The notes below the pieces were generated by a model. The model ran no database searches. It worked only from the letters and a program-made list of their open reading frames with translations, and had not been told where the DNA came from. Made by a program: the position numbers and the translations under genes. From positions 50,468,001-50,532,000 of the forward strand of contig NC_059430.1 of NCBI RefSeq assembly GCF_021028975.2: DNA of 64,000 nt, given 5' to 3'. This document shows, piece by piece, positions 16,991-55,126 of the stretch. Numbering within the stretch: the stretch's first letter is position 1; the number at the start of each line of letters is the position of its first letter. This DNA comes from Sphaerodactylus townsendi. Its lineage: Eukaryota.

Positions 16991-18892
16991 GAGACAGAAA
17001 GAAATATGTCTGGGCACCTATGGTAGCTTTCAGCACTCTTGCTTGAGAAAATGACATCAAAAATTGCTGGCTGCCAGGGACTGGTGCTGAAATATGGGAC
17101 TAACTAAGGCTAAAGCAAGGACCACCATGCTCCATCCCTTTACCACCCCCTGCCTGCCACTTAATAAATAACACTGCAAGTTGCTAGAAATGGTCTGTTT
17201 ATCCAGGTGCATGTAAAATTCTGCTGTTCCAGGTTTCTGCCTGATGTTAAGGCAAAGATACACTATGTTTCTTTGTATGCACCTGGATAAACAGGAGTGA
17301 GTGAAATTGACAAGTGAATTTACTTTTGCAGGAGAAAATTGACAAGAGACTCCCACAGTAATAATTGTGTGTTACTACAGCTCTAATTTGTCAAAAAAGT
17401 GGGATTTTTTGGGGGGAGATACATGTTTCGGTTCCTTCAGGTAAAGACATCTGTTCCGGTAGGTTTTTTAAATTTGTTTTGCTTCCATTGTGTGTGGTAG
17501 TTCTCAATGATAGAAATGGAAGCTGAGAAATTTTTTGATTTGCTGCTTTAATGTAACAGCACAGTAACACTAGAGTGTCTATGCAAAAGAAAAAAGGGGG
17601 AAGGTTGTTCTTTTGCATCAAGAATGACATCCCATCACCATTAGAAGTAATACAATTTCAGCAATGGTATGTGGAATAAATGCAATGGAAAGGGCAAAGG
17701 GAAAAACAATGAGGGGAACAGAGGTGCACAGAATGATTTCACAGAAAACTTTTCCAATACAAATAGTTTGACTTCTGGGAAAATCTGTGATATGCTGTGC
17801 ATGTGGCAAAGGTCTCTGTCCCTTAGGAATTACAATCTTGAGGTGTTAGCTGGTAAATCTTTTTTTCTCACTCTTACCAGAGCCATTTGCATCTCTAAGG
17901 CCGTTTCCGCACGGGCAATCAATGACGTCGTGGAAACGGGAAAAGAAACGTCAGAACGAGAGCGTTCGCACGCGCAGCGACGGAGGTGCGCTGTTGCGCC
18001 ATCGCGAATACGCTTACCCGGCGCGAGGACACCGTATCCAAAAAATGCTTCGAAGCGCTCCTTTTCCATATGTGACGCACCGAAGCCGCAGTCGTGCGAA
18101 CCGGCGCCACGGAGGCGTTCTCAAACATGGCGCCTGCCAAATGATCTCCCGCAGTAGCGGCGGCCATATTGGGAAGGATGAACTGCTCCAGCGGCCATGA
18201 TGGTGAGGTCAGCAGCCACACTTTGACAGAGCTCCTCTTCAAGTGGCGTTGAGAGTCACGCATCCGCGCAGCTGTGAAGCTACATGATTGCACAGCTACA
18301 CAACCTCGAGTCTGAAGGGCGGCGAGGCGCCCCCTGGGCAGACAACGCTGCTGCCTTGATTCAGATCATGCATAACAGGACGCAAAGGTGGAGCCATGGT
18401 CTAAGACACTTCCCCTGTGCCCAATGGGGAGGGGGGAAAGTGTCTGTCCATCCCATTGTCACTTGAGGGCTTCCTGCCATTGGCCAGGAAGTTTGGAAAA
18501 ACTACCCAGCAGACTCTATTGCAGACGCACATCAGACACCACAGCATCAGGTGGATTTGGCTGGTGGCTCTGTGTGTTTGCCCACCCCAACAATGCCCAA
18601 TGAAAGGGCACCTGCCGAGCGGCAGCCAGGAAGAGGAGTCGCTTGGAGAGACAGGGAGACCCGTGACCTTTTGGAATTATGGGGGGAACCGCAAGTGCAG
18701 CGTTCTCTCGCTACGAGCCAACGCAACATAGATGTCTTTCAGCGGATAGCCCAGCAGATGACAGCTCGGGGCCACCGCCGGACAGCCATTGAGTGCCGCA
18801 CAAAAACAAAAGCCATGCGGTATGAATTCAAGCGTGTGCAGCAGCATAACCGAGGGACAGGCAATGAGAGAGCCACCTGTCCCTACTTTGAT

Positions 18893-19174
18893 GAGCTGCA
18901 GCGTATACTGAGAGTGGATGTGAGCATTCAGCCTGGACGAGTGGCAAGAACCTACACCCTGCCAGCCCCACAGAGGGGCAGAGGGGCAGCACGTTGCCAC
19001 ACCAGCACCACAGTACAGGAGGACAATTCAGAGGAGCTGCAGCGTATACTGAGAGTGGATGTGAGTGTTCAGCCTGGACGAGTGGCAAGAACCTACACCC
19101 TGCCAGCCCCACAGAGGGGCAGAGGGGCAGCACGTTGCCACACCAGCACCACAGTACAGGAGGACAATTCAGAG
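18893..19174 (+). repeat. 141-bp in-frame tandem duplication (47 aa) in Myb1 exon 1
   Basis: GAGCTGCAGCGTATACTG starts at 18893 and 19034. The two copies are nearly identical (ELQRILRVDVS[I/V]QPGR...EDNSE). Confidence 0.95.
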
Positions 19175-20309
19175 GAGGCACCCTCAGCTGCTGCAGGCAC
19201 CCCAGCACCCAGCAGCCCTGCAGACTCAGGTGAGAGAGGAGGTTCTGCCCTCCACCTTGTTAAACACAAACTGGCATCCCGGAATGGCTGCCTACCCCTC
19301 CCTCCCTGTGAATGCATGAACCATGGGAACCAGAAGCCACACTGAGTTCTACTGACTGCTGCTCCCCCGCAGCACAGCTGGCCCAGCTGATAAGTGCAAG
19401 TATGTGCAGGGCAACAGGGAGGAATGGGGCACGTCAGGGTCACTGCCAAGGCCACTGGCATGCTGCCAGCCTCTGCCTCACAGAGGTGTGGTGCTCCTTC
19501 CATCCAGCAACCCCCCTTAATGAAAGTCACTTACTGTGTCCCACAGACATAACTGCCACCCAAGAGACAGACCCTTGTGAAGGACCATCCACACGGCCAC
19601 CCTCAGTTGCCTCAGGTAAGTGGCCACCCCACCTGGCCGTAGCTGCAGAGGGGAGAAGGGCTTCCTGTGTGTGCCTCATAGAAGTACAAGGGGCTGAAAT
19701 GCACTTTGTCCCTCTCTCTGACAGGAGCCGCATCAGAGTCACCCACCCAGGGGGAGGATGAAGACCAGGAGGGGGAGGAGCAACAGAGAGATGAGGAGGG
19801 AGATGGTGGTTATGGGGAAAGGCCACTCAGACAGCCCCCGCAGCGAGGTAAATCTCCACAGATGTCTGTATGGGTGGGTCCAGGGAAAGGGGGGGAGATG
19901 CAACCAACAGCCCTCCATTTCTCATCAACAGTCGGTCCTAGACGACAGCAATCGGAATCACCACCTCCAAGGGAAGAATCCCCAGAGAGACGACTGGTCC
20001 CACAGCCTCCGAAGGGGTGCTGTCATGGCAGAGATAGGCCGTCAGTTGCTAGAGCACTGTGCAGCTGACGCAGACAACCAGCGGCTGGCTCAGGAAGCAG
20101 AGCAGGAGTGGCGGCAGGACATTTCTGACCAGATGCAGCTGGATCGTGAGACTTTCCTCCTCACAGCAGCCCGCACCCATCGGGCTTTCCTCCGCACAGC
20201 AGCCCGCACCCACGAGCTCATGGCTGAGCGGACAGAAGTCCTAAGGAGAATGACAGACCTCAGCCTTCAGCAGCAAGGTGCCCGTGTGTGTGGGCGTTGC
20301 CAAGCAGCA

Positions 20310-21800
20310 CTGGCCCCCCTTCACCTGAGCTCCTCAGCAGCAGCCAGCTCCCGCAGCTAATGACACCCCCATCCCCTGTGCGAGGCAGATGTACTCAGAG
20401 GAGGGGACCAGCTGGGCCCACTTGCAGCCCAGTGGCCACCCACAGCCAGCTCATGGAGCCAAGCCACAGCCACCTCCTGGAGGCAGCTTGCCCACCTTCC
20501 CCTGAGCTCCTTGAGTGCAGCGAGCCCCTGGAGCCACCCACTCCCCCACCCCTTGTGCGAGGCAAGCGAGGCCAGAGGAGGGGGGCGGCTGGATCCACTT
20601 CTGCCACAGTGCTCACCCACAGCCAGCTGAAGGAGCTTGCTCGACCCCCTTCCCCTGAGCTCCTCACTTGCAGCCAGCCCCTGGAGCAGGCTGCTCCTGC
20701 ACCCCCTGTTCAAGGCAAGCGAGGCCCCAGGAGGGGGGCAGCTGGACCCACTGCTGCCACAGTGCTCACCCACAGCCAGCTGAAGGAGCTGGCTCAGCCC
20801 CCTTCCGCTGAGCTCTTCACTTGCAGCAAGCCCCCGGAGCAGGCTGCTCCTGCACCCCCTGTTCGAGGCAAGCGAGGCCAGAGGAGGGGGGTGGCTGGAC
20901 CCACTTCTGCTGCAGCACTCACCCGCAGCCAGCTGAAGGAGCCTGCTCGACCCCCTTCCCCTGAGCTCTTCACTTGCAGCCAACCCCTGGAGCTGGCTGC
21001 TCCTGCACCCCCCCGTTCGAGGCAAGCGAGGCCCCAGGAGGGGACCAGCTGGGAAGGCTTCATCCACTCTGGTTACCCACAGCCAGATGGAGGAGGATGC
21101 TCGGGCCCCTTCCCTGGTGCTCTTTCAGTTGGCAGCCAGCCCTGAGCTACTGCCTGCACCCCCCCGTTCGAGGCAAGCGAGGCCCCAGGAGGGGACCAGC
21201 TGGGAAGGCTTCATCCACTCTGGTTACCCACAGCCAGATGGAGGAGGATGCTCGGGCCCCTTCCCCTGCGCTCTTCAGTTGCAGCCAGCCCCTGGAGCTG
21301 GCTGCTCCCGCACCCCCCGTTCGAGGCAAGCGAGGCCAGAGGAGGGGACCAGCTGGGAGGGCTTCATCCACTCTGGTTACCCACAGCCAGATGGAGGAGG
21401 ATGCTTGGGCCCCTTCCCCTGAGCTCCTCATTTGCAGCCAGGCCCTGGAGCTGGCTGCTCCCGCACCCCCCCTGCGAGGCAGGGTGGGCCAGCGGGGGGG
21501 GTCCACCAAGAAGCCTTCATGCACTCTGGTCACCCACAGACAGCTGCAGGAGACATCTCGGCCACCTTCTCCTGAGCTCCACACCTGCAGCTTGTTCCTA
21601 GACCTCAAGTAACACCCTCCCCCCATGCAGCGGCATGGTATGCTCAGAGAGGGGAATCAGCTAGCCCAGCTCCCTCCTTGCTGCCCACCCACAGCCAGCT
21701 GCAGGAGCCAGCCCAGCCCCCGTCCCCTGTCCTAGTTACCAGCAGCCAGCTCCTGAAGGCAGCCACGGCCCCTCCCCCAGTGCGGCATCGGCGTAGCCAG
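20310..21800 (+). repeat. ~153-bp minisatellite encoding a 51-aa Pro/Ser/Arg-rich repeat
   Basis: The GGCAAGCGAGGCC-type motif recurs near 20558, 20711, 20864, 21018, 21169, 21322 and 21475. Unit peptide is about PPVRGKRGQRRGAAGSTSATVLTHSQLKELARPPSPELLTCSQPLEQAAPA. Confidence 0.93.
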
Positions 21801-22045
21801 TCCCATGAGGTGGTTGGTGCTGCTACCCAGCTGCCCCAGGTGACAGGGAAACCAAAGGAGGAATGGGCCCGCTCCCCACCCACCAAGCGAGCCCGGAGCA
21901 CCCCACCACTTGCAAGGGGCGGTGTACGTGGCAAGGCTGGCCACCAGGGCAGCCAGGGCAAAGGACAGGGTGATGGGACAACAATGTGAGGGAGGGGGTG
22001 GTTGTGGTGGTGGTCAGATAATCCCTGTGAGGGCACATAACTTGA

Positions 22046-22051
22046 AATAAA
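22046..22051 (+). terminator. Putative polyadenylation signal of Myb1
   Basis: AATAAA about 57 nt after the last stop, followed by a GT/T-rich tract. Confidence 0.55.
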
Positions 22052-22698
22052 GTTACCTGAAAGAACCCCACCCTTGCTACTGTGGTTTCTGTTCTGCTAC
22101 AATGTGAGTGGAAGTGGGGCTTGTGAGTGGGTGCAGGGGCTGGTGAAGGGCAGGGACATTCTGATCAAAGGGGGGGCAGATTGGTGGCCCTTACATCAGT
22201 TGCTGCTCCTTTATGTGACTTTGGCCCATTTTTCCCTTGACAGATGGAAAATTGGCAATGAATCTGTGTTGTGCCAGGCAGGTCAGGTGTCAGCGAGGTC
22301 AGTGTTAAGCTTGGCCCTGCACCATTGTGACTGGGTCAGCATGCAAGGGAGGGGAGGGAGGGAGAGTCCCCACCCCCCCAAGGAGCTCCATGGAATCTCT
22401 GCACCATGCACAAGTGGGGCAGCTGTCTTGCTACTTGAGGGAAGGCTGGCCAAGCAGTGTAGCGAGGTCAAGGGAGAACTCCTGTAAGGAAGCGATCGTG
22501 GTGTGGTGGCAGTAGCAGTGGCATCCCTGGTGGCAGTAGTGATCCCAGATGGAAAAGGTGTTCATGCGATTCCCACCCTGCCTAGTGTGTGTTTGCACCC
22601 CCCCTGACTGGATGTGGAGATCATGTGAACCGAGCACTGGGGGCTGGTGGGTGCTGCAGTGACACAAAGATGAGCCTATTGTGAATGATTGAATAACT

Positions 22699-23175
22699 TT
22701 TATTAAGTGAAAACATTATCAACACAGGAAACTGCCACAGCATGCCCCAGACCCTCCCCACGAGGCTCCACAGCAGACTCCCCTGCCCATAGCAGCAAAT
22801 TCCCTCAACTCCCAACAACAAGCCCTACACCCTCCTACTCCTGGACTCCATTAAACAAATCCCCTCCGCTCTCCAACGCACAAAGTGCTGCAGACCCTTT
22901 CCACCCCCCCCCACAAACATCATGGACTCCCCACGAATGCCTCCCCCCCCCAACAAGGCCCTTGTGGCCACAGTGCCATTAGGGGCCAACTAACCTGGCT
23001 ATCTCAAAGATGCCGCATAAAACCCCTCTTTAGTCCCAATTGGTACCCCTCGCCCAGCTACTTGCGTGTTTCCTCTGAGCTGGGCGGGCAGACCTGTGGC
23101 AGGTGTGGGGGCAGCCACCCCACTCAGGTGCTCTTGTAGGGACACCCTGGGCACCGAGGATGGTGGACTCACAGC
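22699..23175 (-). pseudogene. Remnant 3' end (last-exon tail, 3'UTR, AATAAA) of a Myb2 paralog
   Basis: 23060-23170 aligns by eye with 30102-30210 (GGGCAGACCTG..CAGGTG.GGGGCAG..CACCCCACT). Peptide SPPSS...GLP is shared. AATAAA on - at 22699-22704. Confidence 0.7.
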
Positions 23176-23743
23176 CATGGTGCCTTGCCGCTCCCAGCTC
23201 CATCCAGGGGGGGGGGGATTTCCCCATTCATGTTCAAAAGCTCCAGCCACGCCTTTGCACATTGTGTTTTCCAACCGTTTTAATACTCCTATTTGGTTCT
23301 GCTTGGCCTGCAGGGGGTTTTACGAAGTACTGGCTTGAAACAGCACTAAACTTTCAGGTATTGGTCGGGGAAGTCTCCTGATGTTCCCACCCAGGTTTTG
23401 TGTGGCTTGGTCCAGGGGGGGTCCAATGGCATGCACTCTCAGTAAGGGTGCCCCCCATCCCCATTGTTGCCACTGGGGAGCTGTGAAGATGGTGCAACAC
23501 CTTTGCTTGGATCCATACATTTGGACCCCCCTGACCTGAACGATCACCAAACCTGGGTAGTATCATCAGGAGAGTCCCCCAATCAGTGCTCTGCTGAAAA
23601 GTTTGATGCTGCTTAGGGGTTAACCAGTGCACCCCTGACAGCAGCCACCCCTAATTTTTTCCATCGTTCTCCTTTTCAGATCCACTCCCTCCCTTTGTGG
23701 CATGGATTTACAGGGATAATCTGAGGTCCTAAATTTAGAATAT

Positions 23744-24010
23744 GAGGAAGAGTGTGGATCTATATCCCCCCCTTTCTCTACTGTAGGAGGCTCACAGGGG
23801 CTTACAATCTCCTTGCCCTTCCCCCCTCACAGCAAACACCCTCTGTGGTGGGTGGGGCTGAGAGAGCTCCGAAAAGCAGTGACTAGCCCAAGGTCACCCA
23901 GCTGGCGTTTGTGGGAGTTCACAGGCTTATCTGATTCCCCCAGCTGAGCCTACACAGCTCAAGAGGCAGAGCACAGAATCCAGGCAGGGTCCTGCAGATT
24001 AGAGTGCTCC
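23744..24010 (-). mobile_element. SINE inside the Harbinger (related diverged copies at ~26412-26620, ~26890-27065, ~31095-31300, ~33273-33480)
   Basis: CCAAGGTCACCCAGCTGGC and other blocks shared with 53805-54050. Confidence 0.8.
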
Positions 24011-24405
24011 TTCAGGGTGGGGGACGATCAACCCCCAAACAGCATTAATTTCACTGTTGTAAGTAAGGACCCCAGATTCTCCCTGTAAGGTAGACCTAGT
24101 TTAAAAAACCTTTGAAAGTGATGCTGTTTGGGGGTGGATTCCTGCATCACAGCTGCTGTCCCAGGGGATGGGGGGTGGGGGTGGGGGCCCAAAAATCAGC
24201 TTCTGCATCATGCTCCATTTCCCCTCCATGCCTTGGTCCAGAGGAGAGGGGCAGGGGAGGGCAGGGCAGGGGAGCTCCCATAGGCCATTCTGTAGGACTT
24301 GCATGCTATGCAGCAGGAACAGATCAGGCCGAGCCACTGGCACTCATGGCCCAGCCGCCACCCTCCCCCTATGGCACCGTGGCCGAGCTCTGAATAGATA
24401 CCCAG

Positions 24406-25813
24406 CTAGGGCCTCTCTGACAGCCTGCCCCTCTCGCCTGTGCGTATCATCCTGGGGGTTGTATGGGCGGCCAATGGAGGGATCTGCTGCTTCTTCCTGC
24501 TGGTGTGCTTCTTCTTCGCTAGAATTGGAGCGACCTGCTCATTGGGGAGATCTGGAGCTCTGTGGCCATGGCTCTCACACAGGTTGTGCAGCACCACGCA
24601 CGCCGCCATTACCCGAGGTGGCATTCTCGGTCTGACCCACAGACAGTTGAGAATGCATCTCCACCGCGCCTTCAGGCGGCCAAATCCATCAGCCTCCACC
24701 ACGCTTTGGCGCGGGGACAGATGTGAGTTGAAGTTTCGCTGCTGCGTTGGAAGGAACCCGGTAAGGTGTGAGCAGCCACGGCGCTGGGGAAAGCACCATC
24801 CTCAATACCACAGGGGGGTATGGACACGCCGCTGATTGTCAGCATGGGGTTTCAGGCAAGTAGATGCCCATGTCCATGGCTTGACAGAAGCAGTTCTAGA
24901 TGAAACACAAATGCATCATTGTTGCGAGCAGAGTAGCCAGTTTCAGCATTGATAAACATTCCGCGAGGTTGCCAGCAGGAGCTTGGAGGAAAAGTTTTTC
25001 GACACGATTAATGAGGCTGACCGGTGCTCCACCTGGGTTACAGATCCGATGACAGCCATCCACGGCCCCGATGCAGTGGGAAAGCCAAGGGCAGCAAAAC
25101 TAGCCATCACCTGTAGGGAAACAGACATTGGCACATAGGTTGGGGAGGTTGGCAGTACAGGGAGGGGGGATCTGCAGCTGCTGTTTAGTTGTAGTGGCAT
25201 AAGCATGTACAGCTCTGTCAGCACTTCCACAGCCATGGCAAACTCCAGGACACAGTGGCCAGTCCAACTCCAAACTGTTGGCCCACTTCACGATAGCTGT
25301 TGGCACTTGCTAGGTACCACAAGGCCATGGCCACGCGCTTTAGCATGGGAATGGCAGGACGCATATTGGTGTCTTGTCGTTCCAAGTGTGGACGCAGGAC
25401 ATCTGCGAGGTAAATGGCTGTTGCCTTGGCCATCCTGAAGTTTTGCACCCACTCCTCATCTGTCCAGACTGTCATTACAAGCACATTTAATTATGCCATT
25501 AAAGGTTTATATATATATATACAAGCACATCCCACCAGGTGTGGCTCTGGGGACCTATCCAATGGCGGGGGGTGTTGGGAACACTTGCGATAGCAAACCA
25601 GCGCAATATTGCGCGCCTACGGGGCCTGCGGTGCACTGTGGTGTCAGATTGAGTCACTAGCCCTTCGGTAAGATGGCGGCGTAGCCTCCCCACCAGACGT
25701 CGCATCAGCTGGCCTCTGCGTGCCATGAAGGTGTCTGTGGTTGAGGCGCCCTGCTCCTGCTCATCGTGCAGTACTTCCTGCCGCACCACCTCTCCCAGAT
25801 CCATGTCTGCCAT
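24406..25813 (-). pseudogene. Harbinger transposase (DDE_Tnp_4, HARBI1-like), disrupted
   Basis: Motifs reconstructed across frameshifts: WWDVLVMTVWTDEEWVQNFRM, RVAMALWYLASANSYREVGQQFGVG, GFPHCIGAVDGCH, GYSARNNDAFVF, DGAFP..WLLTPY, VVE..FGRLKARWRC and ACVVLHNLCE. Intron acceptor (ctacag) at 25111-25112. Confidence 0.92.
25476..25530 (+). mobile_element. Ultra-short 5'-truncated LINE 3' tail inserted in the transposase
   Basis: 11-bp TSD TACAAGCACAT (25476-25486 and 25520-25530) around TTAATTATGCCATTAAAGGTT(TA)n. The same TATGCCATTAAAGGTT ends the LINE near 60745. Confidence 0.85.
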
Positions 25814-25938
25814 GCAGACAGCAGCTAGCCGTATGGTTCCCTGGTTCCACTGAACACCTGAGCACGGAATGGAAACTGGTGGGAGGCGGCCAGACTACAG
25901 ATTGGGGGACGGACGAGCCCTCAGAATAGTTGCCTTGG

Positions 25939-26030
25939 CCAATCGTTCTGCTTGATGTCTGTGACATCAGTCTGCCACAACTTTGTGAGTGTTTAGCCCG
26001 GACAGGGCGGAGCAACATGCAGCATCCGCA
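25939..26030 (-). promoter_or_regulatory. Putative transposase promoter module, copy 1 (CpG-decayed)
   Basis: CCAAT at 25939 and TGACATC at 25962, upstream of the transposase ATG at 25813. Confidence 0.5.
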
Positions 26031-27259
26031 GCATTTTGTTCGGGATGGCAGCAGCAAACTGCTAAGGTGACTCTCATAATGATAATGACGGGTTTGCCTT
26101 AGGTTTGCTTCCGGGGCAACAATTCTATGGACTGCAAAACATGTACTCACCATCCCCTATTGTGTCAAATGGGATTTCAGAGAAGATAGGGACTGCACCT
26201 TTGAGGGTCCATTACTGGGGAGTCCATGACACAAACCTCACCAAATTGGTGCAGGCTCATTAGGAGAGTATTCTGCATATAGCGGCACAGTTTTGTAATT
26301 CCAGCTGACCAATTGCACCCTGCCAGCAGGCACAACCTGAAAATCTCCATGTTAGATCTTTTACATCCAGTCCTGGATGTAACGTGAGGATTTCAGTTCC
26401 TCAGCTTAGCAGAAGAAGAGATAGGATCCACCCCCCCCTTCTCTCCCACAGAGGATCCAAGAGACAGGCAATCTCCTTGTCCCAGCCAAACCCCACCTGT
26501 AAGGGAGGTGGTGATGAGAGACCTGGCATAATCTGTGTATGGGCCAAGGTCACCCAGCTGGCCTGTGTGGGAGTGCACAGGCTGAGCTGAATTCCCCAAA
26601 TACACATGTGCAGTGCAGTCATGTTAGCTGGGAGCAGAAACATGTTCCTAAGCATTGTAATGTCCCTGCTCTGAAACACTGCATCACTTTGCAAGTTCCA
26701 TTGCTTTCCCCACCCCCATCCCCTGTGCGAGGCAAGTGCGCTCAGAGGAGGGGGGTGACTGGGTCTGCTTTGTCCACGCTGGCCACCCACAGCCAGATGA
26801 AGGTGGATGTGTGGGTCCCATCCCCTGAGCCCTTCACCTGCAGCCAGTGCGTGGAGCTGACCAATCCACCACGAACATGGGCTTCCAATCACCTTTCCCT
26901 TCCTCCCCTCACAACAAGCACCCTGTGAGGTGGGAGGGGCGTAGAGAGCTCCGAGAAGCTGCGACTAGTCCAAGGATACCCAGCTGGCGTGTCTGGGAGT
27001 GCACTGGCTACTGTGAATCATCCAGACCAGCATGTACAGCTCTGTCAGCATAGCCCTAAACCACTAAAGCTGTCACTGTGCCAGTGATGCCGTGTCAGGG
27101 TGGGGGATGAGCCATCCCCAAACAGCATCAATGTCCATGTTGTGCTGTCTGGAGACATGGCATTGTCCCTTTAAGGTGGCGTTAATGTAGGAGTTAGGAC
27201 TGTCCAGGTAACATAATATTGGCAAAGATGCTGTTTGAGGGTGGACTGTAGCATCACAT

Positions 27260-27394
27260 NNNNNNNNNNNNNNNNNNNNNNNNNNNNNNNNNNNNNNNNN
27301 NNNNNNNNNNNNNNNNNNNNNNNNNNNNNNNNNNNNNNNNNNNNNNNNNNNNNNNNNNNNNNNNNNNNNNNNNNNNNNNNNNNNNNNNNNNNNN
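27260..27394. other. Assembly gap (N)
   Basis: Run of N inside the Harbinger. Confidence 1.
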
Positions 27395-27900
27395 CCTGCA
27401 GACATATGCCTCTGAAGGAGTGGTGCCAGGGGTAGAAGTGTGAAGAGCATGGCCACGCCGTCGGAGCTTCAGACAGGCCCCCCCCCTTCACATGTGTCCC
27501 TGGTGATTTCAGTGCATGGACAAGCACCTTTCACAGATCCCTCTTGCCTATGCAGATAGTGGCTGCCCATACAAGCTGCGGTGTCACTGGTGACAAAACT
27601 GGGACTGACAGGAGCAGGGAGGAGAGCCAGACTGAGGGGGGGGGGGCAGCCAGAACATCAAGCTAGTCACGCGCATGGTCGCAGGCGCGTACCGGCGGAG
27701 GATTGGGCGACCGCCCATCCGAAAGAGAGGCGGTGCTGCCTCCCCCACAGAAGGCTCATCAGCTGGCCGCTGTGTGCCATGCAGGTGTCCGTGGCCACCC
27801 GCACTTCGTACTGCTCCTGCATGCCTGCGATCCCTGCCTGCTGGAGCATCTCTCCCTTATTCACGTTGCCCAACCAGATGGCAACTCTCCATATGATTAC
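27395..27900 (-). pseudogene. Second, degenerate transposase 5' remnant
   Basis: TDTCMAHSGQLMSLLWGRQHRL matches TDTFMARRGQLMRRLVGRLRRHL of the main transposase. Adjacent DNA is homologous to 34230-34420. Confidence 0.7.
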
Positions 27901-27998
27901 TAGTGCCACTGGGCACCTGACCAGGGACGGAAAACAGCTGGGGGGAGAGTGGATGACAGATTGGGTGAACAGTCGAGGCGGCAGGACACTCCCCTCTG

Positions 27999-28095
27999 CC
28001 AATCATGCTGCTGAGCAGCCGTGACGTCGGGCTGACGCGGCTTCGCGAACGCGCTGCTCCGACAGGGCGAAGCGACACGCCGCTCCCACAGCGCG
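27999..28095 (-). promoter_or_regulatory. Putative transposase promoter module, copy 2
   Basis: CCAAT at 27999 and TGACGTC at 28022, then GCGGCTTCGCGA. Confidence 0.5.
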
Positions 28096-29034
28096 TTTTT
28101 TGACCAAGCAGTGCCAAACTTCTAGTGAGTGTTTGGGGGGCCCTCTTGAAGATACTCACTGCAAGTGGTGAGGTTTGATTTAGGGTAGCCGAAGGTATGG
28201 ACTCCCAAAGGGGGTGTCCCTATCCCCCATTATTCCCAATGGGAGCTATTGGGAGATGGGGGCTAAGGTTTTGAAGGTCCATAACTTCGGCCCCCCTGGA
28301 CTAAACTGCACATAAGTTGGGGGGTTCCATAAGGACAGTCTCCTAACGATCTGCTGGAACTGTGGTGCTGATATGTCTAACAATGTGTACGAAACCAATG
28401 AAGAGCACAGCGCATACAGACAGTTCAATTCGTGAGACCTTCGAATCAGGATGAGTAAGCAGAGAAGGAAATAGCAGTAATAATTACATGGCACAGAAGT
28501 CAAGCACAACTAGCCACTAAAGCTAGTCAATCAGCCAACCCTTATTGCCAGACCTACATCGGGGGCAATTCTCACTCCCCAAGGTCACGGGGGATCCACG
28601 TTGCTTCACATATTTATTTTCATTTTAATAATATGGTATCCTGGGGGGGCGGTGGTGGGCATTTGCACATGTTCTTGGGAAGCATCCACAGATTTTGGAA
28701 CAACTGCTGAGTGGCCTCGTGCCGATGTGCCCACATTTAGTGGATTCCGACAGAATCCGACATAGGGAGGTGAAAAAGAAATGGTGGCCACGGAATTTCC
28801 CCAAGCTTGTTAATCAGGCTGTGCGCCGCATCCAGAGTGGTTCGCCGGAGGCTCGAGTCAACATTCGAGAGTACAGTTGTCGACCCCGCAAATGGCGGCG
28901 CGTACCTCACGTGGCCGCGTAGCTCCAGTGCGTGTGTACGTTTCCCGTTTTGGGTTCAAATGGGCCAATGGAGTTTCTGGAAAGTTAACTGCCCAAAGCC
29001 CCCCTTCCGTTTTCCCTTTATTCTCTGGTCTGCC

Positions 29035-29147
29035 ATGGAAGGAGCTAGACATGGAGTGGCCTGGCAGCCGGAGGAACTGAACATCATGTTCAGCACGATC
29101 CGGAATTGCGGATACGCCGCACTGTTAATGGGCAGCCTAGCTCTACG
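29035..29147 (+). pseudogene. Truncated Myb/SANT-like 5' fragment (Myb3), inverted paralog of Myb2
   Basis: MEGARHGVAWQPEELNIMFSTIRNCGYAALLMGSLAL compared with Myb2 GVYWQAQEEVTIL..RVKDREDAPWLSLMASTGL. Upstream TTGGGTTCAAATGGGCC (28950-28966) matches the reverse complement of 32701-32717 at 16/17. Confidence 0.65.
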
Positions 29148-29685
29148 GTAAATATGGTGCTAGTGAAAGTGGAATGGGGAAAGGTGACCTATGTTCCATG
29201 CTCCTTGGATTACAAGGTCCTAGATGGGTACAATAACTGCACGACAGATGTGATGTCACCGTGCTTTTCTGTTCTAATCAGAGAGAGGCTAATCCTTGGC
29301 AGCATCTCCTTACCCATGTTAAAGGACATGAAATATGGGGGTAAAATGAGTCCACTGTGTTCCCTGTGGTGTTTCCCCTATTGTCTAGCACCAGCCTAAT
29401 TGGGTGAGTGGTGCATCCACTGCACAATGAGGGGTGGAGAATTGGTGCCAGAAAGGGAAGGGGAGGGGACCCAGCATCTGGGCATGGCCCTGCCACCCTA
29501 GCGGAGGGAGGGGGAGGGGAGGGGCTTGTGAGTGTGTGCAGGGACTGTGGAGATGCAGGAACACAAAGATGAGACAAATGCAAACAGTTAAAAAGTTTTA
29601 TGTATTGTCGAAGGCTTTCACGGCCGGAATCACTTGGGTGCTGTGTGGTTTCCAGGCTGTATGGCCGTGTTCTAGCAGCATTCTC

Positions 29686-29728
29686 TCCTGACGTTTCGCC
29701 TGCATCTGTGGCTGGCATCTTCAGAGGA
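29686..29728 (-). ncRNA. Minimal hammerhead ribozyme motif (antisense arm)
   Basis: Reverse complement of TCCTGACGTTTCGCC...GGCATCTTCAGAGGA gives the same intact core. Confidence 0.75.
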
Positions 29729-29753
29729 TCATGGAGTTTCTGAAATCTTCAGA

Positions 29754-29796
29754 TCCTCTGAAGATGCCAGCCACAGATACAGGCGAAACGTCAGGA
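29754..29796 (+). ncRNA. Minimal hammerhead ribozyme motif
   Basis: TCCT-CTGAAGA-TGCC-loop-GGC-GAAAC-GTC-AGGA: CUGANGA and GAAA cores, GUC cleavage triplet, short helices I and II. Confidence 0.75.
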
Positions 29797-30101
29797 GAGA
29801 ATGCTGCTAGAACACGGCCATACAGCCCGGAAACCACACAGCACCCAAGTTAAAAAGTTTTATTGAACACACACAATGACAAAAGCACAACTTCCCCAAC
29901 AGTCCCTGATACCCTCCCCCAATCCCACAGCACAACCCCCCTAACCCACAACAAGTCCCACCTAGCCCACAACAGCCCACCCTAACCCTCCAGAACCCCC
30001 AACACACAACAACAACACCCTAACCCACAACAAGCACTTGCCCACAACTATTGTGCAATGTCCTTGCCCCAGTGCCCCTCTGTCCAAAATCCCACACGCC
30101 A

Positions 30102-32625
30102 TCACTGCGAGTCCTCCGAACTAGAGGGCAGACCTGCCAGGTGCGGGGCAGGCCCACCCCACTGTGGGGCTTCTGGTGGCGCCCCTGGAGCAGAGGAGGG
30201 AGGACTGGCTGGCACTGTGCTGGCCTCCTCCAGGTCAGAGGGCACAGGGGTGGTGCTGCAGTTGGTGGAGGAGGAGGCAGCCTGCTGTGTCCCACTGCCT
30301 GGTCCTGAGCTTAGGACCAGCGGTTGCTCTGTGGGGGGTGGAGGGGAACGATCCCCTGCCACCTGCCGCCGCTCTACCACTGCCAGCCGCTGCTCGACCG
30401 CTGCCAGCCGCCGTCCCATGCGTGCCAGTCACCGATCCATGTGAGCCACTGCAAAAGAGGAGCATAATTAGCTGGGGCAGCTCTTCCCAGCTGCCCATGG
30501 CCTGGCCAGCTGGCATTGTTGACAGTCATTCCCGCTTCCCAATGTGACTTCCATCACTGTGCCACACCCAGAGCAGGCTGCAGCAGAGCAGTCAGAGGGA
30601 GTCTGTGCAATCTGTTCTTACACAGCTGGAAGCAGTTGCAGTGCTGCTGCTGTGGTTGGTGGCCTGCTGCTGCCATTCCAGATGGCCCTGGAGGGGAGGA
30701 AGTTGAATGTCACATTTACTGGGCCACAACACTTGTACATGGGGGGTCGGGGGGGGACATGATCCTCCATGTCATGGCCTCTGCAACTGGCTGGAGCAGG
30801 GATGCTGTTGTACCCATGCACGGGGGAGGGGCCACAACCCCACCTGCCCTCAGGTCATGACTGCCCCTCCCATAGCCCTGTTGTGGCCACAATAGGTATA
30901 TGAGAAGCTGAATGAGCTCAGTCATGGCACACTCCCTTGACCTACCCTTCTCTCTCCCTCCCCTCTGGGCAGCAGCATAGATGGAAGATGGAAGATAGTG
31001 CACATTCCCCCCTTGGCCACTGTGTGGCTGGCATCCACCCCCCCCTCCCACAGCATCACTTTCAAAGCTTGTGCACCCAGGGAGTCATTGCTACTGTGGA
31101 TTAGTGGTGAAGGGCAGGTGCACTCTGAGCTGCAGGATCTGGTTTTGTTTCCCTGCTCTGCCACCTGAGCTGTGGAGGCTCATCTGGGGAATGCACATTA
31201 GCCAGTGCCTCCCACACACAGTTGCTGGGTGACCTTGGGCTAGTCACAGCTTGTGGGAGTTCTCTCATCCACACCCATCTCACAGGGTGTGTGGTGTGAG
31301 GGTGCAGGGTCAAGGAAAGAAAGGGGGGATGTCACTCCAAACTACTACTGCGCTTGTACACTGAGGACCTCGGTTTGTCATTTTCAATCCATGGGAATGG
31401 GAGTGTCTGCACAAAAGTAATATGTGTGAATTTGGATGGTGCCTGCTTTCAGGGGTGCAATTGTTCAGCTACAAGCACCAAATTGCCAGGTTATATGTGA
31501 GGGACTCTTCTAAGGATAACACAAAGGTTTGGTGAAGTTTGGTTCAGAGGGCGCACAGGTATGGACTCCCAAAAGTGTTGTCACGATCCTCCATTAGCTC
31601 CCATTTGAAAAAATGGAGGTCAGTGGCACCCCTTTTGGGAGTCTGTATCTGTGGACCCTCTGAACCACAGCTCACCAAATCTGGCTGCCATCATCAGGAG
31701 GTTCCCCCTGAAAAATCCCTGCAGTGTAGTGCAACTGGTTCAAGCAATGCAGGCCAGGCAAAATGCACTTCAGAAAAACAGCCAAATGGTGGCCACACCT
31801 CCAAATGGAGAGGATGGCTTCACATGTGAAGGGGGGAGCATTGAAAACCATGAATTCCCCCCCACCTGAGCACATGAGCTGAAGGTGCGCATGTGCGAGG
31901 CTGCATGTCACCGCACCTGCACACACGCACACTCACGACACCGCATCCCCCCGCAAGCGCCCTGCTTACCTGGTTGCTGGCTTGCCTCCACTGGACGCTC
32001 TTCCATAGAACTGGAAGAGCTCTGGTGTGGGGCCGCAGCCTCGCCTCTCTCCTCGCCTGGCGACACGGAGTCCCCACCAGAGGAGATTTCTGCCTCCTGG
32101 CCCTGGACTGGGCCTTCCAGTGGCTCCCGTGGGGGTGCCAGGGCGTGGCGTCGAGCGGCGGCGCCTGTCGGAAACAAATAACAATCAGATGGGATCCTAC
32201 ACAGGGAACCCACCTGCGCACAATCGCGTGTGCGCACGGTCGCGAGCTCGAGTAAACGCGCACTCACCTTCAGGCCGATGGTCCACCCAACGGGGCTCCC
32301 CAGCCAGCCGCCACAGCTGGCGCATGGCAGCAAAATGCGGGGGCCAAGCGGAGCGGCGAGGGTGGCCTTCATAGGCCTCCATTGCAGAGAAGAAGTCCCT
32401 TTTGAGGGCCTTCCACTTGGTGCAGGCTTGCACCTCTGTACGGTGGAAGCCTGCACGCTGGAGTGCCCTCGCCACCGCCCGGAACGCCCGTCGATTGGGC
32501 AGTCCCGTGCTGGCCATGAGGGATAGCCAAGGCGCGTCTTCGCGGTCCTTGACGCGCGCGTGAGGCGAGGATGGTGACCTCCTCCTGCGCCTGCCAGTAG
32601 ACTCCCACGCCTGGGTGCACCTCAT
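30102..32625 (-). pseudogene. Second Myb/SANT-like gene (Myb2), spliced
   Basis: GVYWQAQEEVTIL...NRRAFRAVARALQRAGFHRTEVQACTKWKALKRDFF...PPHFAAMRQLW. GT-AG exons 32625-32268, 32164-31970, 30687-30622 and 30448-30102, all phase 1. The last exon is coiled-coil-like (RRLAAVEQRLAVVERR) with one TGA, probably from CGA. 5' frameshifts. TATATA at 32667 and AATAAA on - at 29859-29864. Confidence 0.82.
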
Positions 32626-33584
32626 GGCTGTCCCGGGAAATGGCTGGGAAAAGGGAAGGGACCCTCTATATAGAGAGTAGATCTGGCCCTGTAGCAATTC
32701 GGCCCATTTGAAGCCAACAGACTTCCAGCGGCTACGGCAGCCTCAGAGGGACTCCTTTTTAAAAATCACGCCGCCATGGGGATGCGCTCGCAGCCCTCGC
32801 GAATTCCCACGCCATCAAGGCAAGAGCCGCGGAGAGGGCGCACAGATCCCTCCTCTTCGGCTGCGGTGACGCACCCCTGTTTCCCGAAAAGAAATGAAAT
32901 ACACACAACGCTAAAAGTAGTTTGTAGAAATTGTCATTTGCACTTAGTACAGCCAAGGGTGTGCATTTTCGCCCCACAGATCAAAAGCACCACTCAGGCC
33001 CCCACTTGGCATACTCTGCAACACCGCCGCTGGAGCCACAGCCAGGAGATCAGGCTGCCCCAATGCCAGTCATTGGATGGCAGCAGCCCACACCCTTTGT
33101 TGCTGGTGGCCAGCTCTGAAGCGATACCCAGGTAGGGCATTTCTGACAGCCTGCTCCTGACACCTGTGGGTGTCAACCTGGGGGTTGTACAGATGCCCAT
33201 GTGGTGGCATAGGCACATCTTCCTGATGCTGCCCTGCTTCTTCAGTGTAGCAGTATAATCTATCAATATATAGAAGAAGAGTTGGATTTATATGCGCCCT
33301 CCATTTCTGTCCTGCAGGAGACTCAAAGGGGCTGATATTGCCCTTCCCCCCTGGCATAACAGACCCCTGTGAGGGAAGAGGTGGTTGCCTGAGAGAACTG
33401 AGAGAGGCTGTGTATGGGCCAAGGTCACCCAGCTGGCATGCGTGGGAGTGCTCAGCTGAAGCTGCATGTCCCAGATACACATGTGCAGCTCCATCAAGTT
33501 AGCAGGGAACAGACACCTGTTCCTCAGTTTTGGAATGCCCATGCTCTCCAACACCACAACATCACTTTGCCATTGGATGCTGTT

Positions 33585-33940
33585 TTTCGTAAGAACTGCT
33601 CTCCAGCGAACTATAATTCCTATCGAAGTCGCCGTCAGCATGGCCAATTGGCCATGCTGGTAGGCTGATGGGAATTGTAGTTCCCGAACATCTGGAGAGC
33701 CGCAGGTTCCCTACCAGTTGCAGTAGACTTCCGCGTTTTCCGATAGCGAACTGATAATCATCAAGTTTCGTCAGCATGGCCAATTGGCCATGCTGCAGGG
33801 CGATGGGGAATTGTAGTCCTGAACATCTGAGAGCCAAGAGGTTCCTGGCCCTGGCGTGGGGAGTAGGGACACCGGCTCAGATGTTTTAGGAACGCTAATT
33901 CCCATCAGCCTCTCTGTCAGCATGGCCAATTGGCCATGTG
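33585..33940. mobile_element. About three tandem, garbled copies of the palindromic hAT MITE
   Basis: Repeated CAGCATGGCCAATTGGCCATG and GGGAATTGTAGT motifs shared with 43001-43148. Confidence 0.7.
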
Positions 33941-34476
33941 ATGAGCTGATAGTAGACCTGGCCTCGACATTCTACCTGGCGATGGTCTTTATTCCTAGGC
34001 AGCATCAATGTCCACATTTTGCTACCTGGGGACATGGGATTTTACCTCTCAGGTGGCCTTAGCGGAGCAGCTCAGACTCTCCAGTTGACACACCATTGTC
34101 AGTAATGCTGTTTGAGGGTGGCCTGCAGCAACACAGCAGCTGCCAGGGGGAGGGGCAGGGTAGGGCAGGGCAGTCTCCACTCCCTGCCAGCAGAGTGATG
34201 TTTTTTAGGAGCTGGCCCAGGGTTGTGGCCAGGATGGCCACACCTTTGGAGCTTTGAGAAGTTTGGTCACTTCCCCCCCTCCCCCGCCCCTTAAGTGTGT
34301 CTCTGGTGATTTCTCTGAATGGTCCAGCACCTTCCCCAGATTCGTATAGGCTGCACAGACAGTGGCTGCCCATACAAGCCGTGGTGTCACAGGTGACATA
34401 AACTGGGACTGACAGTAGCTGGGAGGGGAGGCGATGACAGCTGGGGGTGGCCAAAACTTTAGGGTAGTCACGTTGG

Positions 34477-34575
34477 CCAATCGCGCTGCTGTGCGGGCAT
34501 GACGTCGGCCCTGCGCGGCTTCGCGAGTGCGCAGCCGCAACGGAGCGTAGCAAGAAGCCACTTCTGCAGCGCCTC
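34477..34575 (-). promoter_or_regulatory. Putative promoter module, copy 3, in the right subterminal region
   Basis: CCAAT at 34477 and TGACGTC at 34500, then GCGGCTTCGCGA. Same 23-bp spacing as the other two copies. Confidence 0.5.
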
Positions 34576-37064
34576 CGTGCGAACTGGCACATTTCTCGCG
34601 CGGACTCGCGGACGTTAGCAGCTCCGGGCCTTTCAAGGTCTGTGCGAACGCTTTTTTTTTCGAGAGGCGTCAGCCGATTTCTCGGTACGCTCATCTGGTT
34701 AAGTGCGCTGCTTTCTCGGCCGTCGCGGAAACGGCCTTCCGGGTTTGAAAGTACTCTGCTTGTAGATCAATGACTCAGCCTCTGTATTTTGCCTCTTGGC
34801 ATTTGCCAACTTGCAGTAAGCTTCCTGGACATAGGAAATAATATAGACATGGTCTCTAGAGTGGAAGGCTCATCTTCACACAAGTTGTTAATTAAGTCTC
34901 ACCTGGCACCAATATACTTTCCTTTAGGCACTGCAATGTCTTTACATAGCCTGTTAACTAAGGGGATCCATCTTTTAAAGCTGTTTTATGGTCTTCTCAT
35001 AGTCTGAGGACTGTTTTATCAATATCAGTTTATATGCTCTATTTTGTTTGTGTTTTTATGCCCTGGCTTGGTTTTTGACATTTTTATTTACTTGTTTTTA
35101 TTTCACTTCATTGACTTTATTTGTTTTATTGGCATGACTTGTTTTTATTGACTTTGAAAGGAGTTTTTCTTTATTGTTTGACTTGTGAGCTGTCTTGCAT
35201 AAGACTACAAAGTTAACATACAGATTGTTAACATTAATAAATAAAAGCTGGACAATCTTGCTTAATTTACACTGCAATCCTAAGTACACTTGAATCCTTC
35301 TTCTTGCTGCCAAATGCTACCATATTAGAAGTAGCTTAGTCCCTGACAAAAAAGGTGAGAAAATCTGAAAAGCTTGATCAATTAGAGGTTTCCCTGTCTT
35401 GGTGTTACTGGAAGGTGTGGGTGCCCATTGCAGCCATTATTGCGTATTCTCTTGAATTATATTCCCAGTTCTCTAACCTAGGGTATTCTTTTGCTTTCCA
35501 ATTTGCTGCACTCTAGCTTTTGTCAAATATCAAAAACAGTTCTTCTGAGTTTCTTGAAATGTTCTTTGGTAATATGCCTAGTAGCTCAGTCTTGGCGAAT
35601 TTTTGCTTTTCCCTCCCCATTTTTCTGAATGACCATTACATTCAGAAACCACCAACTTTATTGCACTTTCAATATTTTCCTTTGTAGCATTCTTTGTACA
35701 ACAAATTGTAGCACTTCCACTGACACCATTTGGGAATATAATTACCGTGCTCACGTCACTGTCACAAGATGGGAAATAATGTATTTACATACTCCCCATT
35801 ATATTTTGTTCAAGGAAACACCCTATAATTTTTCAAAATGCATTTCACATGGATCAAGAGTTACCAGGAAAATAAGATCACAACTCAGTTGCAAAATGAG
35901 CACATTAACCACAAGGCTATCCTTTCTCTTTGTTTGTTATCCAGCATAAATAAGAGAGGAAAGCAGTCTCTAATTGATCTTTTGATTTTTTTTCTTTTTA
36001 GGTAGCAAAAAGAACTAATAAAGAAAAGCAAAAGCAATGCATTAATTGTAAGAGAGGGTTCCTTTCATGAAGTTTCCCTTAAGAATGGAATTGACTGGGC
36101 ACATCTCTCTTAAATTCAATACAAGCATGGAAATGAAGGCAATTAGGAATTTGGAAAATGGAATGAACTGCTTTCCGTCCACAGTTAGGATTTCTATCTT
36201 GTCTCCTGGACAACTGCACTGATACAGTTATTAGAAACTGTTAAATTAACTAGTAGTTGATAGATTAACGAGAAGATACTAATTCATGACCAGACAAGTG
36301 GCACCCAGGGACATAGGTTACCCCATGACCCTCTGGCAGGTATGCCACTGGTTGCCTGTTAGTGGCAGGAAGAAGGAACATCTATGGAGATCTCTGGAAC
36401 AATATTCTTCTTTGCTGTATGGAAATGGACTTATGTGCTGAATGTTATTATCAAGAAGCTCACCAGAAATGCTGAGATAGTACAATGTGTATGTAAAATT
36501 ATAATTAGATTCTAGATAGACTTACAGTTACATCCGAGGTGGGTGGAATCTGCTGCTGGGAGCTGCTTGGGCCACCGCTGGCATATTTGCCCTCACCAAG
36601 GCAGTTGCCCTGGTATTGGGGTGGATCCACTGACAGGTGGCTGCACAGCCCTCCATGGCGGTAGGATGCGGCACTGAACGCCACACCAGCATCCGTACAC
36701 CCATGATACCAGTGTAGTGGGGTAGTCTGGGAGTGTGGCCAGGGGAGGAACCAACAGTAGTCAGCTTCCACCCTGCTATTGCCGTGTTCCACTGGCAACC
36801 AGGGCTTTGAATGTATGACACCTTTATGGTGGTGTGAGTTCATTAAGCTCAGTGGGGGCTTTCCAGAGGTAGAAAGGCTTTTTTGCATTTTTATCCTTCC
36901 CATGCCACTGGAAAGCCCTTTTGGGAATGACAGGCCAGTATAGCTGTGGCACTGCAACCTGGCACCCAGCCTTTTGGATGGGGCTGCCCATCAGGTTTTT
37001 GGTTTTGTTTTCCTTGTGTGGACTGGGTGCTTTATAGTTTGTGGCACTCTGTGAACTAATAAAT

Positions 37065-39485: not shown

Positions 39486-40884
39486 AAATATGTGTGTTGT
39501 GTAACACCGGAGGGAGAAGGCACCTTCGTGGTTTGGCCACATTTCTCTCCTGCAGAGGAAGGCACCCAAGAATGGCACCAATGGCTTCACCCCCACTGAA
39601 TACCCAAGGCACTTCACTCCTATTTCAGCAGACTCCCTTTCCCCCAGGTCTCCCCATCCAGCACCCTCCCTTCCCCAGGGCACATCCTTCAGCTCTAATC
39701 CACATTTGCCACCACCACCAACAAAAACGAACTTCCCCTCGTCCTCACTTCAGCGATCTCCGCAGAGGCTCCTTTCTTTTCCCTGGAGGCGTGCCTGCCT
39801 TCCTTCCTGGGGTCTCCCACAGCCTAGTGTGGGGAATGGCAGGGGCAGAGGAGTGAAGCTGCCATGCTGATGCTGTGATGCTCTGCCTGGAGGAACCAAA
39901 ACTGGTGGTCCACCTCTTGCTGGGGCCAGGGTGGGGGGAGTCATGAGTCTGGAGCCGGGCTGGTGCCCCGTGGATCAAACAAACCTTCCTTCCTCCTGTT
40001 CCTGAGGAACTTAAGCCAGTTTTGAGGAACCAAAACCTTCCTTCCTCCTGTTCCTGAGAAATCGAAACCAGTGGTCTGCCTGTTGGGCCGGAGGGGGTGA
40101 GGGGAGCGATGGGGCGGCGGCCGGGTGGGTGCCGCCGCTGCGCACCCACGGTTGACAGAGCAAACAAAAGACAAACCTTCCTTCCTCCTGTGGCCCCCGC
40201 CCTGTAGATGCATTCATGGAGGAGCTGCTGCTGCCGGGCGGGGAGCCGGGGACTCCCCAGCTCCACGCTGCCACTGGCCAGTCAGCCCGAATAAGGCTTG
40301 TGATGATGCGACGCTGGGAGGCGGAGATCCCTCGTCCTCCTGCTGGCTTGCTCGGACTGGGAGATGGAACTGGCCCAGTGGGCCACTGTCCACAGGGCGG
40401 GGCTAAGGCAGCCTGAGCTGAGTGCTAAGTAAAGCAGCTTGCCAGCGCTGCCGCTTGCTTGAAGTTGCTTCACATGATGGTGCAGTCTGTGGGGGGACAT
40501 TTTGGCACCCCCCACATGATTGAAATTGATGTGCCCGGGGACATGGGTTACCCCATGTCCCTAGGTAAATACGCCCCTGGGAGAAGGAATGGCACACTTT
40601 GGACATACACAGAGTCTTGAAGATTGATATCTATAGGACTGAACCCTTCCAAAACTCAGATGCCTGATGGTTATCCTATATAGGCTCAATTAGACTGGGG
40701 AAAAGGCATCAAAAGCTTTCATTGTCCAATGGGTGAAGCTTTGCATACAACTAGCTTATAAGGTACAAGGCCCTCAGGCACTGGTCCAGATCTTGGCACA
40801 CTCCACTAGAGCAGCAGTAACATCAGCAGCTTTTGTGGCCAGAGCCCTGGTTGATGAAATTTGCCGAGCAGTGATGTGGTCATT

Positions 40885-41125
40885 GGGGTGCTGTGTGGTT
40901 TCCGGGCTGTTTGGCTGTGTTCTAGCAGCATTCTCTCCTGACCTTTCACCTGCATCTGTGGCTGGCATCTTCAGAGGATCTGATAGTAGGAAAGCAAAGC
41001 AAGTGGAGTATGAAAGGAAAGCAAGTGGAGCATTCAGGAGAGAATGCTTCTAGAACATGACCATACAGCCTGGAAACCACACAACACCCCAGTGATTCCG
41101 GCCGTGAAAGCCTTCGACAATACAC
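40885..41125. mobile_element. Short Penelope-like insertion
   Basis: 13-bp TSD TGATGTGGTCATT (40872-40884 and 41126-41138). Same family as 29602. Hammerhead core mutated (GAAAG). Confidence 0.82.
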
Positions 41126-54934: not shown

Positions 54935-55126
54935 TGTTTGGGTGCTGTGTGGTTTCTGGGCTGTATGGCCGTGTTCTAGCAGCATTCTCTCCTGACGTTT
55001 CGCCTGCATCTGTGGCTGGCATCTTCAGAGGATCAGGAGAGAATGCTGCTAGAACACGGCCATACAGCCCGGAAACCACACAGCACCCAAGTGATTCCGG
55101 CCATGAAAGCCTTCGACAATACATTG
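54935..55126. mobile_element. Short Penelope-like insertion with intact hammerhead motif (54990-55032, -)
   Basis: 12-bp TSD AACAAAGGAACA (54923-54934 and 55127-55138) and inverted arms. Confidence 0.85.

Follow-up and report, generated by a model that had tools for sequence, protein, structure and literature searches.

Harbinger transposons are described, in the accessible parts of two reports, as elements with two open reading frames (ORFs) (PMC4482050, PMC9179366), whose Myb-like protein recognises a subterminal motif and associates with the transposase (second-hand via PMC9710019, likewise in its accessible part) and whose Myb and transposase genes are regarded as co-evolving and rarely recombining. 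In this study, we analysed a stretch of 64,000 nucleotides from the gecko Sphaerodactylus townsendi (positions 50468001-50532000 of contig NC_059430.1 in a 1.81-Gb genome; "the window" denotes this whole stretch), in which a composite Harbinger carries Myb1 (+), a DDE_Tnp_4 transposase (-), Myb2 (-) and the start of Myb3 (+). The copies analysed comprise 48 genome regions and 8 loci of a miniature inverted-repeat transposable element (MITE); copy names such as C3a or C15a are labels for the genome regions compared. Part of the composite was genuinely duplicated, with a different gene lost from either half: module A kept the transposase and module C kept Myb2. The gecko family, whose ancestral form had three genes, preserves a series of single cassette, duplicated intermediate, reciprocal loss and capture, together with a mapped crossover.

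With its DDE_Tnp_4 transposase, PF13837 partner, short terminal inverted repeats (TIRs) and short non-autonomous derivatives, and with a 3-bp target duplication at part of its copies, the element resembles PIF/Harbinger (PHIS) elements such as zebrafish Harbinger3_DR. Unlike two-ORF Harbingers, however, the gecko family had two Myb genes already in its ancestral form, and the composite, 14-23 kb long, has three. For fish Harbingers, possible exchange of Myb and transposase between families was deduced from tree incongruence in four elements, and recombination was called rare (PMC9179366); no breakpoints are given in the accessible part of that report, whereas in the gecko the Myb gene was added and not swapped, and donor family and crossover lie in one genome. 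Template-switched gain of sequence or internal duplication, followed by amplification, is shared with Pack-TIRs/FoSTeST (PMC8277862) and Galileo (PMC4168063), as far as the accessible parts of these sources go. In Pack-TIRs the cargo consists of host fragments with microhomology at the joins, whereas the gecko cargo is the whole gene of another transposon, joined within a shared MITE and with signs of purifying selection; host cargo, i.e. sequence not derived from transposable elements, was not found among the foreign pieces traced, all of which are Harbinger, MITE or short interspersed element (SINE). Solo-ORF Harbingers (Harbinger-Snek, PMC8437027; Harbinger-1M_cIno, PMC13668399; Myb-bearing newt Harbingers, PMC5741667), in the accessible accounts, likewise have separable Myb and transposase genes lost by deletion, but split the functions between elements, while the gecko composite splits them between the duplicated halves of one element. 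Accessory third genes also occur in HarbingerS (SET domain) and PHISTA (TET/JBP), where the available part of PMC12730594 describes chromatin enzymes, in contrast to the Myb/coiled-coil genes added in the gecko. In the literature searched, a Harbinger carrying two or three Myb genes was not found, and Repbase, Dfam or supplements may hold one; protein searches returned close matches labelled Sphaerodactylus townsendi, one of them 100% identical over the aligned part, and many distant Myb-like matches, the latter given without genomic context.

Transposase, Myb domain and TIR place the element in PIF/Harbinger, with the 3-bp target duplication agreeing only in part. Instead of the two ORFs, both necessary for transposition, that characterise PIF/Harbinger, three or four genes are present. 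PF13359 (DDE_Tnp_4) is matched above cut-off at 24409-24801 (E 4e-7) and PF13837 (Myb/SANT-like) on Myb1, Myb2 and Myb3. The TIR, GGCCGTTTCCGCAC, is short, begins with G/A and is common to other copies; it starts at 17899 and its inverse ends at 34736, limits that are matched by the GC-rich block of the window. A 3-bp target duplication matches in 12 of the 20 two-ended copies and is, unlike the usual TWA of PIF/Harbinger elements, varied (ACA, TTC, TCA, ATG, TCT, AGG, AGA, TGA, TTA), with TWA in only 2 of these 12 and the NuwaI-type CWG in 0/12.

Reciprocal loss in modules A and C

A first-pass annotation of the window had proposed three modules ending in one shared promoter-like block, derived from a duplicated Myb2-transposase-promoter cassette whose copies lost complementary genes. 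The direct repeats are real, but four blocks are present (at 25773, 27512, 27833 and 34314) and not three, and the proposed duplication followed by complementary gene loss is borne out in A and C, not in B with its foreign transposase start and captured gene. The collinear diagonals outside MITE sequence in a sensitive self-BLAST of 17-36 kb, a comparison akin to the self dot-plot that the annotation had suggested, reach E 1e-9 to 1e-35. Between A and C, diagonals connect the Myb2 tails (23071-23200 vs 30112-30236, 71%, E 1e-9), the Myb1 3' regions (22116-22158 vs 29521-29563, 81%, E 1.5e-4) and the promoter blocks (25784-26032 vs 34325-34570, 61%, E 1e-12), and an ACACAAAGATGAG...TTTTATT anchor is found at 22662 and 29561, the second one split by a young insertion at 29600-29850. 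As claimed, A keeps the transposase and, of Myb2, only the 3' tail, which gives the first of these diagonals. C had been described as Myb2 with a transposase trace; this trace (34300-34420) corresponds to the first ~30 codons, but the C-terminal end at 33033-33245 was retained as well, so that both transposase ends are kept in C and ~1.3 kb of the middle is gone. Pieces of a MITE coincide with both losses, that of A's Myb2 and that of C's transposase body. Module A is present in thirteen copies; its transposase contains stops and frameshifts in the window copy as assembled, whereas a majority sequence built from six A copies has an open frame, in which the D, D and E motifs are present.

In a tree of 40 transposase ends, with none left out, the C-terminal ends of A, C and both units of copy C15a form one clade excluding all single-cassette copies (100/98). 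Comparing divergence between modules with that between copies, the A and C ends are 67% identical in the window, while the same module in copy C4a is 90-92% identical. Since A and C differ more within the window than the same module does between copies, the duplication preceded amplification. The predicted intermediate between duplication and reciprocal loss is preserved in C15a, both of whose units contain Myb2 while only the first has the transposase. Identity between these units reaches 94% at the transposase end and about 67-80% over Myb2, and this far greater closeness at the transposase end suggests later conversion.

Selection on the kept genes was assessed by omega against the majority sequence of the single-cassette copies, and by the ratio of non-synonymous to synonymous polymorphism (pN/pS) for variants common to two or more composite copies. 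Omega amounts to 0.10 for the catalytic exon of A, 0.09 for the middle of its exon 1, 0.08 for exon 1 of C's Myb2 and 0.21 for Myb1, and to 1.06 for the transposase remnant of C. For composite copies, the pN/pS values are 0.15 for the catalytic part of the transposase, 0.18 for its C-terminus, 0.11 for Myb2 and 0.96 for the Myb2 tail of A, but also 0.97 for the N-terminus of A's transposase. The kept genes, A's transposase and C's Myb2, show purifying selection and the remnants look neutral, a pattern that fits reciprocal loss.

Shorter relatives with a single Myb2-transposase cassette, for which the first-pass annotation had recommended a search, were found: C3a (7061 bp, TTC/TTC target duplication), oC4c (6960 bp), oC9b (4857 bp), C10b and C9. 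They are ordered left end, Myb1, Myb2, transposase and right end. C3a, oC4c and oC9b have no MITE at the right end and are basal in the trees, which are rooted by more distant copies that lead from the transposase start directly to the right TIR. These relatives measure 4.9-7.1 kb, and the composite is derived from such a single-cassette ancestor of 5-7 kb, so that the family had two Myb genes from the outset. Non-autonomous copies of only 0.7-1.2 kb combine the left end with the C-type right end; since they end in the C-type block, the promoter-like block can be considered the right subterminal region.

Among further copies, C2a (C2:133787000-133807400) contains two full Myb2 modules, and a 6.2-kb L1-type retrotransposon lies inside the transposase remnant of C15a (C15:9158890-9165070). 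The non-autonomous derivatives, with composite left end and C-type right end, fall into two size classes of ~0.68 and 1.06-1.19 kb.

Module B and the captured Myb3

For module B, a transposase N-terminal remnant had been described. B2 (27673-28094) is such a remnant, but of C15a-like and not of A ancestry, and a Myb1 unit and Myb3 had gone unmentioned. Self-BLAST relates the transposase start and promoter of A to B (25647-26274 vs 27701-28344, 63%, E 4e-56) and B to C (27478-27671 vs 34282-34472, 78%, E 2e-35). B1 falls together with the block of C and those of the short non-autonomous copies (100/100), while B2, found in 7 copies, is sister to the full-length transposase gene of C15a (100/100), to which it is 86.8% identical compared to 63.3% to A. 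The transposase N-terminal region of A itself is sister to copy C7, on a long branch (0.31). In topology tests that left out six long or error-rich rows, monophyly of A and B2 was rejected (p-AU 6.8e-10, approximately unbiased test). A Myb1 coding-repeat unit at 26713-26870 lies between two SINE pieces, which is a further sign of template switching.

Read as a true internal triplication, A, B and C would descend from one cassette within one lineage, with an early-duplicated transposase start, fast evolution of A and loss of A's copy from C15a by recombination. The direct-repeat arrangement of all modules without an internal TIR, the long branch of A's N-terminus and the origin of B1 as a within-lineage copy of C's block would agree with this, and excluding C7 from a group of A, B2 and C15a is rejected only at p 0.033. 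However, the rejected monophyly of A and B2 and the far greater identity of B2 to C15a contradict such a descent, which also leaves Myb3 and the family-2 crossover described below unaccounted for, rendering a triplication unlikely. The first-pass interpretation is partly supported, its triplication being better read as one duplication plus inter-element recombination.

B2 as a selected truncated regulator was considered and dropped (omega 2.0, p 0.23; 2 synonymous and 5 non-synonymous shared variants), and the equivalent region is unconstrained in module A, too. For module A at 25500-26040, covering transposase N-terminus and promoter, the branch of 0.31 compares to 0.065 for the core; this long branch may stem from co-evolution as the Myb partners changed, or from replacement by sequence of another lineage. 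In copy C17 (C17:10600000-10615300) the B1/B2 junction occurs a second time, with an inverted MITE inserted in it.

Both B2 and Myb3 are of foreign ancestry, and Myb3 originates from a distantly related Harbinger family, here termed family 2, whose TIRs are different. The Myb3 frame from 29035 (+) starts like Myb2; an origin as inverted duplicate of Myb2 was rejected, as monophyly of Myb3 with the composite Myb2 is excluded at p-AU 1.2e-4. In sister copies Myb3 is a four-exon gene of which all four exons were captured, while the window copy lost ~3.1 kb (the rest of exons 1-4) at 29138/29139. The 5' part is carried by 7 of the 13 A-type copies, and C2a holds the last exon only. Myb3 matches two family-2 copies, C3m and C10m, with which it groups at 100/100 and which are collinear with each other past the captured segment. 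Compared to the composite family, family 2 has other TIRs, a Myb1 of 53-54% and, in C3m, a transposase of 44-47% amino acid identity. The left join of the captured segment lies inside a MITE piece carried by both families: left of ~28197 the window is 84% identical to C15a and 60% to C3m, right of it 67% and 86%, respectively. Over three exons, 42 synonymous and 25 non-synonymous Myb3 alleles are absent from family 2 and present in at least two composite copies (pN/pS 0.20, p 1e-10), and Myb3 is therefore likely maintained by selection in composite copies after capture.

These data also bear on nested insertion, by which whole Harbingers, one of them from family 2, would have jumped into one another and later deletions would have removed the inner ends. 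Pieces from three lineages are indeed present, the family-2 segment is in native orientation relative to the transposase, and MITEs and an L1 did enter these elements. The motif scan between 17899 and 34736, however, found only the outer pair of the family TIR, and modules with their own TIR or 3-bp target duplication, which the first-pass annotation had named as evidence against a triplication, are not left inside the element. The family-2 join is, moreover, a clean switch within shared MITE homology, the A and C ends are most closely related to each other, and blocks A and B2 both break off before the TIR, at one site of ancestral MITE insertion. We therefore consider nested insertion quite improbable.

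The family-2 copies are located at C3:163926653-163946320 (C3m) and C10:81317644-81331200 (C10m); the family has TTTCCCCACT-type TIRs and likewise two Myb genes. C3m encodes an apparently intact Myb3 of 279 amino acids, and a transposase was not detected in C10m. No further family-2 copy was found among the best candidates of the genome search.

Proposed history of the composite

We propose, at a probability of roughly three in four, that the composite arose by one internal cassette duplication with reciprocal loss and the addition of pieces from related Harbingers. An excision gap would have been repaired from a sister or related copy, with template switching copying in foreign pieces; abortive repair with template switching is an established source of rearranged TIR elements in the accessible parts of PMC4168063 and PMC8277862. 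A single cassette would first have received a MITE insertion near its right end, followed by tandem duplication of Myb2-transposase-promoter. C would then have lost the transposase body and, afterwards, A the Myb2 head, both losses possibly caused by MITE insertion or MITE-MITE recombination. B1 and B2 would have been copied in prior to the capture of Myb3, with one join lying inside a passenger MITE common to donor and recipient. Amplification with continued shuffling would have followed, and then deletion of most of Myb3 in the window copy. The remnants may have survived through overlap with cis signals, since the Myb2 tail in A could act as poly(A) site for the transposase and the transposase end in C could contain the promoter of Myb2. 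Transposition probably requires the right-end block. Myb2 and Myb3 might be accessory regulators of the element.

Several observations weigh against this history. The window copy's own target duplication is mismatched (TAA/TTC). The Myb2 tail of A has an omega of 0.24 against the single-cassette copies, like that of C (0.23); no selection is seen on the middle of A's exon 1 among copies (pN/pS 0.70), and selection on Myb1 is weak among them (0.47, p 0.053). The grouping of A, B2 and C15a without C7 is rejected only at p 0.033, and the position of A's N-terminus beside C7 may be wrong, given the branch of 0.31. The direction of capture rests on congruent distances, because two family-2 copies are known and Myb3 is not nested inside them. 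In exon 1 (L015:5440-5790 vs L092:4710-5054), synonymous divergence (dS) of Myb3 to C3m amounts to 1.17, compared to about 15% divergence in the non-coding flanks; CpG turnover and import from another donor are candidate causes of this several-fold excess, and repeated import from unsampled donors could inflate or mimic part of the selection signal. Many copies contain indels resembling assembly error, and contigs show single-base indel runs relative to copy C12a. Copy divergences are consequently upper bounds, and the broken frames of the window may be partly error. Finally, RNA reads, from 6-24% of each of three runs under another organism label, are sparse, not assignable to the composite subfamily and not used as evidence: run X11 gave few reads, with a depth of 1-5 over the last exons of Myb2, about 1 over Myb3 and almost none over the transposase, and in X12 and X13 nearly all matching reads fell within repeats.

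More tentatively, and with considerable doubt, gecko Harbingers might hold an exchangeable class of second Myb/coiled-coil genes with accessory regulatory or anti-silencing function in place of end binding, with MITEs as crossover hubs between families of different TIRs and a selective edge conferred on the composite subfamily by Myb3. If true, a vertebrate DNA transposon would have a pool of accessory genes at its disposal. The family makes testable both the role of a second or third Myb in Harbingers and the idea that genes pass from one DNA transposon family to another through passenger MITEs; a bearing on host function is not evident.

Assembly, passengers and annotated features

The structure of the element is not an assembly artefact. 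The stretch is covered by contigs from public runs, which belong to three studies and bear three organism labels, and single contigs bridge its junctions (X5, B1|B2 and transposase end|SINE; X4, B2|MITE; X1, Myb2 intron|MITE). The X4 contig spans the 29138 deletion with one difference at a depth of 12, where X4 may be the source sample.

The long diagonals 23333-24274, 26066-27258, 30798-31870 and 33272-34222 are pieces of a SINE-bearing MITE, which we take to be hAT-like from its TIR, as we take the SINE label from its motifs. Eight SINE-bearing MITE loci outside share its structure, and 31 of 41 genome matches to the SINE/MITE junction lie outside Harbinger copies; the MITE is thus mobile independently. 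The shared junction, belonging to a mobile MITE family, therefore does not prove that the modules descend from one another or from one source. The MITE in the Myb2 intron (30798-31870) is inverted and has an 8-bp target duplication with 6/8 positions matching. If the modules were chance look-alikes from independent SINE/MITE insertions, or products of mis-assembly of a GC-rich repeat, the independent mobility of the MITE would explain the diagonals derived from it, and the many indel-ridden copies would be expected. The strength of the non-MITE diagonals and the recurrence of junctions on several chromosomes (B2 in 7 copies) and in contigs from three studies, however, refute it as an account of the whole. 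The hAT-like MITE family was amplified together with its internal SINE (L113-L120), and a SINE-free version is present in L107.

Table 1. Features of the composite Harbinger, in window coordinates
Feature	Position	Strand	Remark
Composite Harbinger element	17899..34736	.	16.8 kb; single TIR pair, GGCCGTTTCCGCAC type; flanks TAA / TTC
Myb1 gene	18593..21760	+	PF13837, E 1e-18
Myb1 3' / convergent polyadenylation region, two copies	21900..22818	.	third copy 29516-29950
Module A Myb2 3' tail remnant	22992..23200	-	neutral among copies: 4 synonymous, 10 non-synonymous shared variants
SINE-bearing MITE piece in A	23333..24281	+	in place of lost Myb2 exon 1 and middle exons
Module A transposase	24282..25800	-	two exons; PF13359 on C-terminal frame
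Transposase start and promoter/subterminal block A	25773..26042	-	without last ~130 bp and TIR of ancestral right end
MITE/SINE passenger block	26066..27258	+	one Myb1 repeat unit inside; masked N run follows
B1, copy of C-type right-end block	27478..27671	-	
B2, transposase N-terminal remnant and promoter	27673..28094	-	
hAT-like MITE piece with crossover	28091..28384	+	switch near 28197-28215
Captured family-2 segment	28200..29138	+	upstream region and Myb3 codons 1-37 (start 29035)
Young palindromic insertion	29600..29850	.	~14-bp target duplication; outside family structure
Module C Myb2 gene	30100..32630	-	PF13837, E 9e-10; inverted SINE-bearing MITE in intron
Module C transposase C-terminal remnant	33033..33245	-	neutral; just upstream of Myb2
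SINE/MITE piece in C	33272..34222	+	in place of lost transposase body; later small MITE insertions 33608-33950
Module C right end	34312..34736	-	transposase start, promoter/subterminal block, right TIR

Myb1 contains a recent tandem duplication of 141 bp (18890-19177, 98%) and about ten coding repeats of 150 bp in its C-terminal part (20310-21760). The latter, which dominated a tblastx self-comparison, are apparently fewer in single-cassette copies and are lacking in C10b and C9. The young palindromic repeat, presumably Penelope-like, also occurs at 40880-41128 and 54938-55127, with identities of up to 96-100%, and is extremely abundant in public runs.

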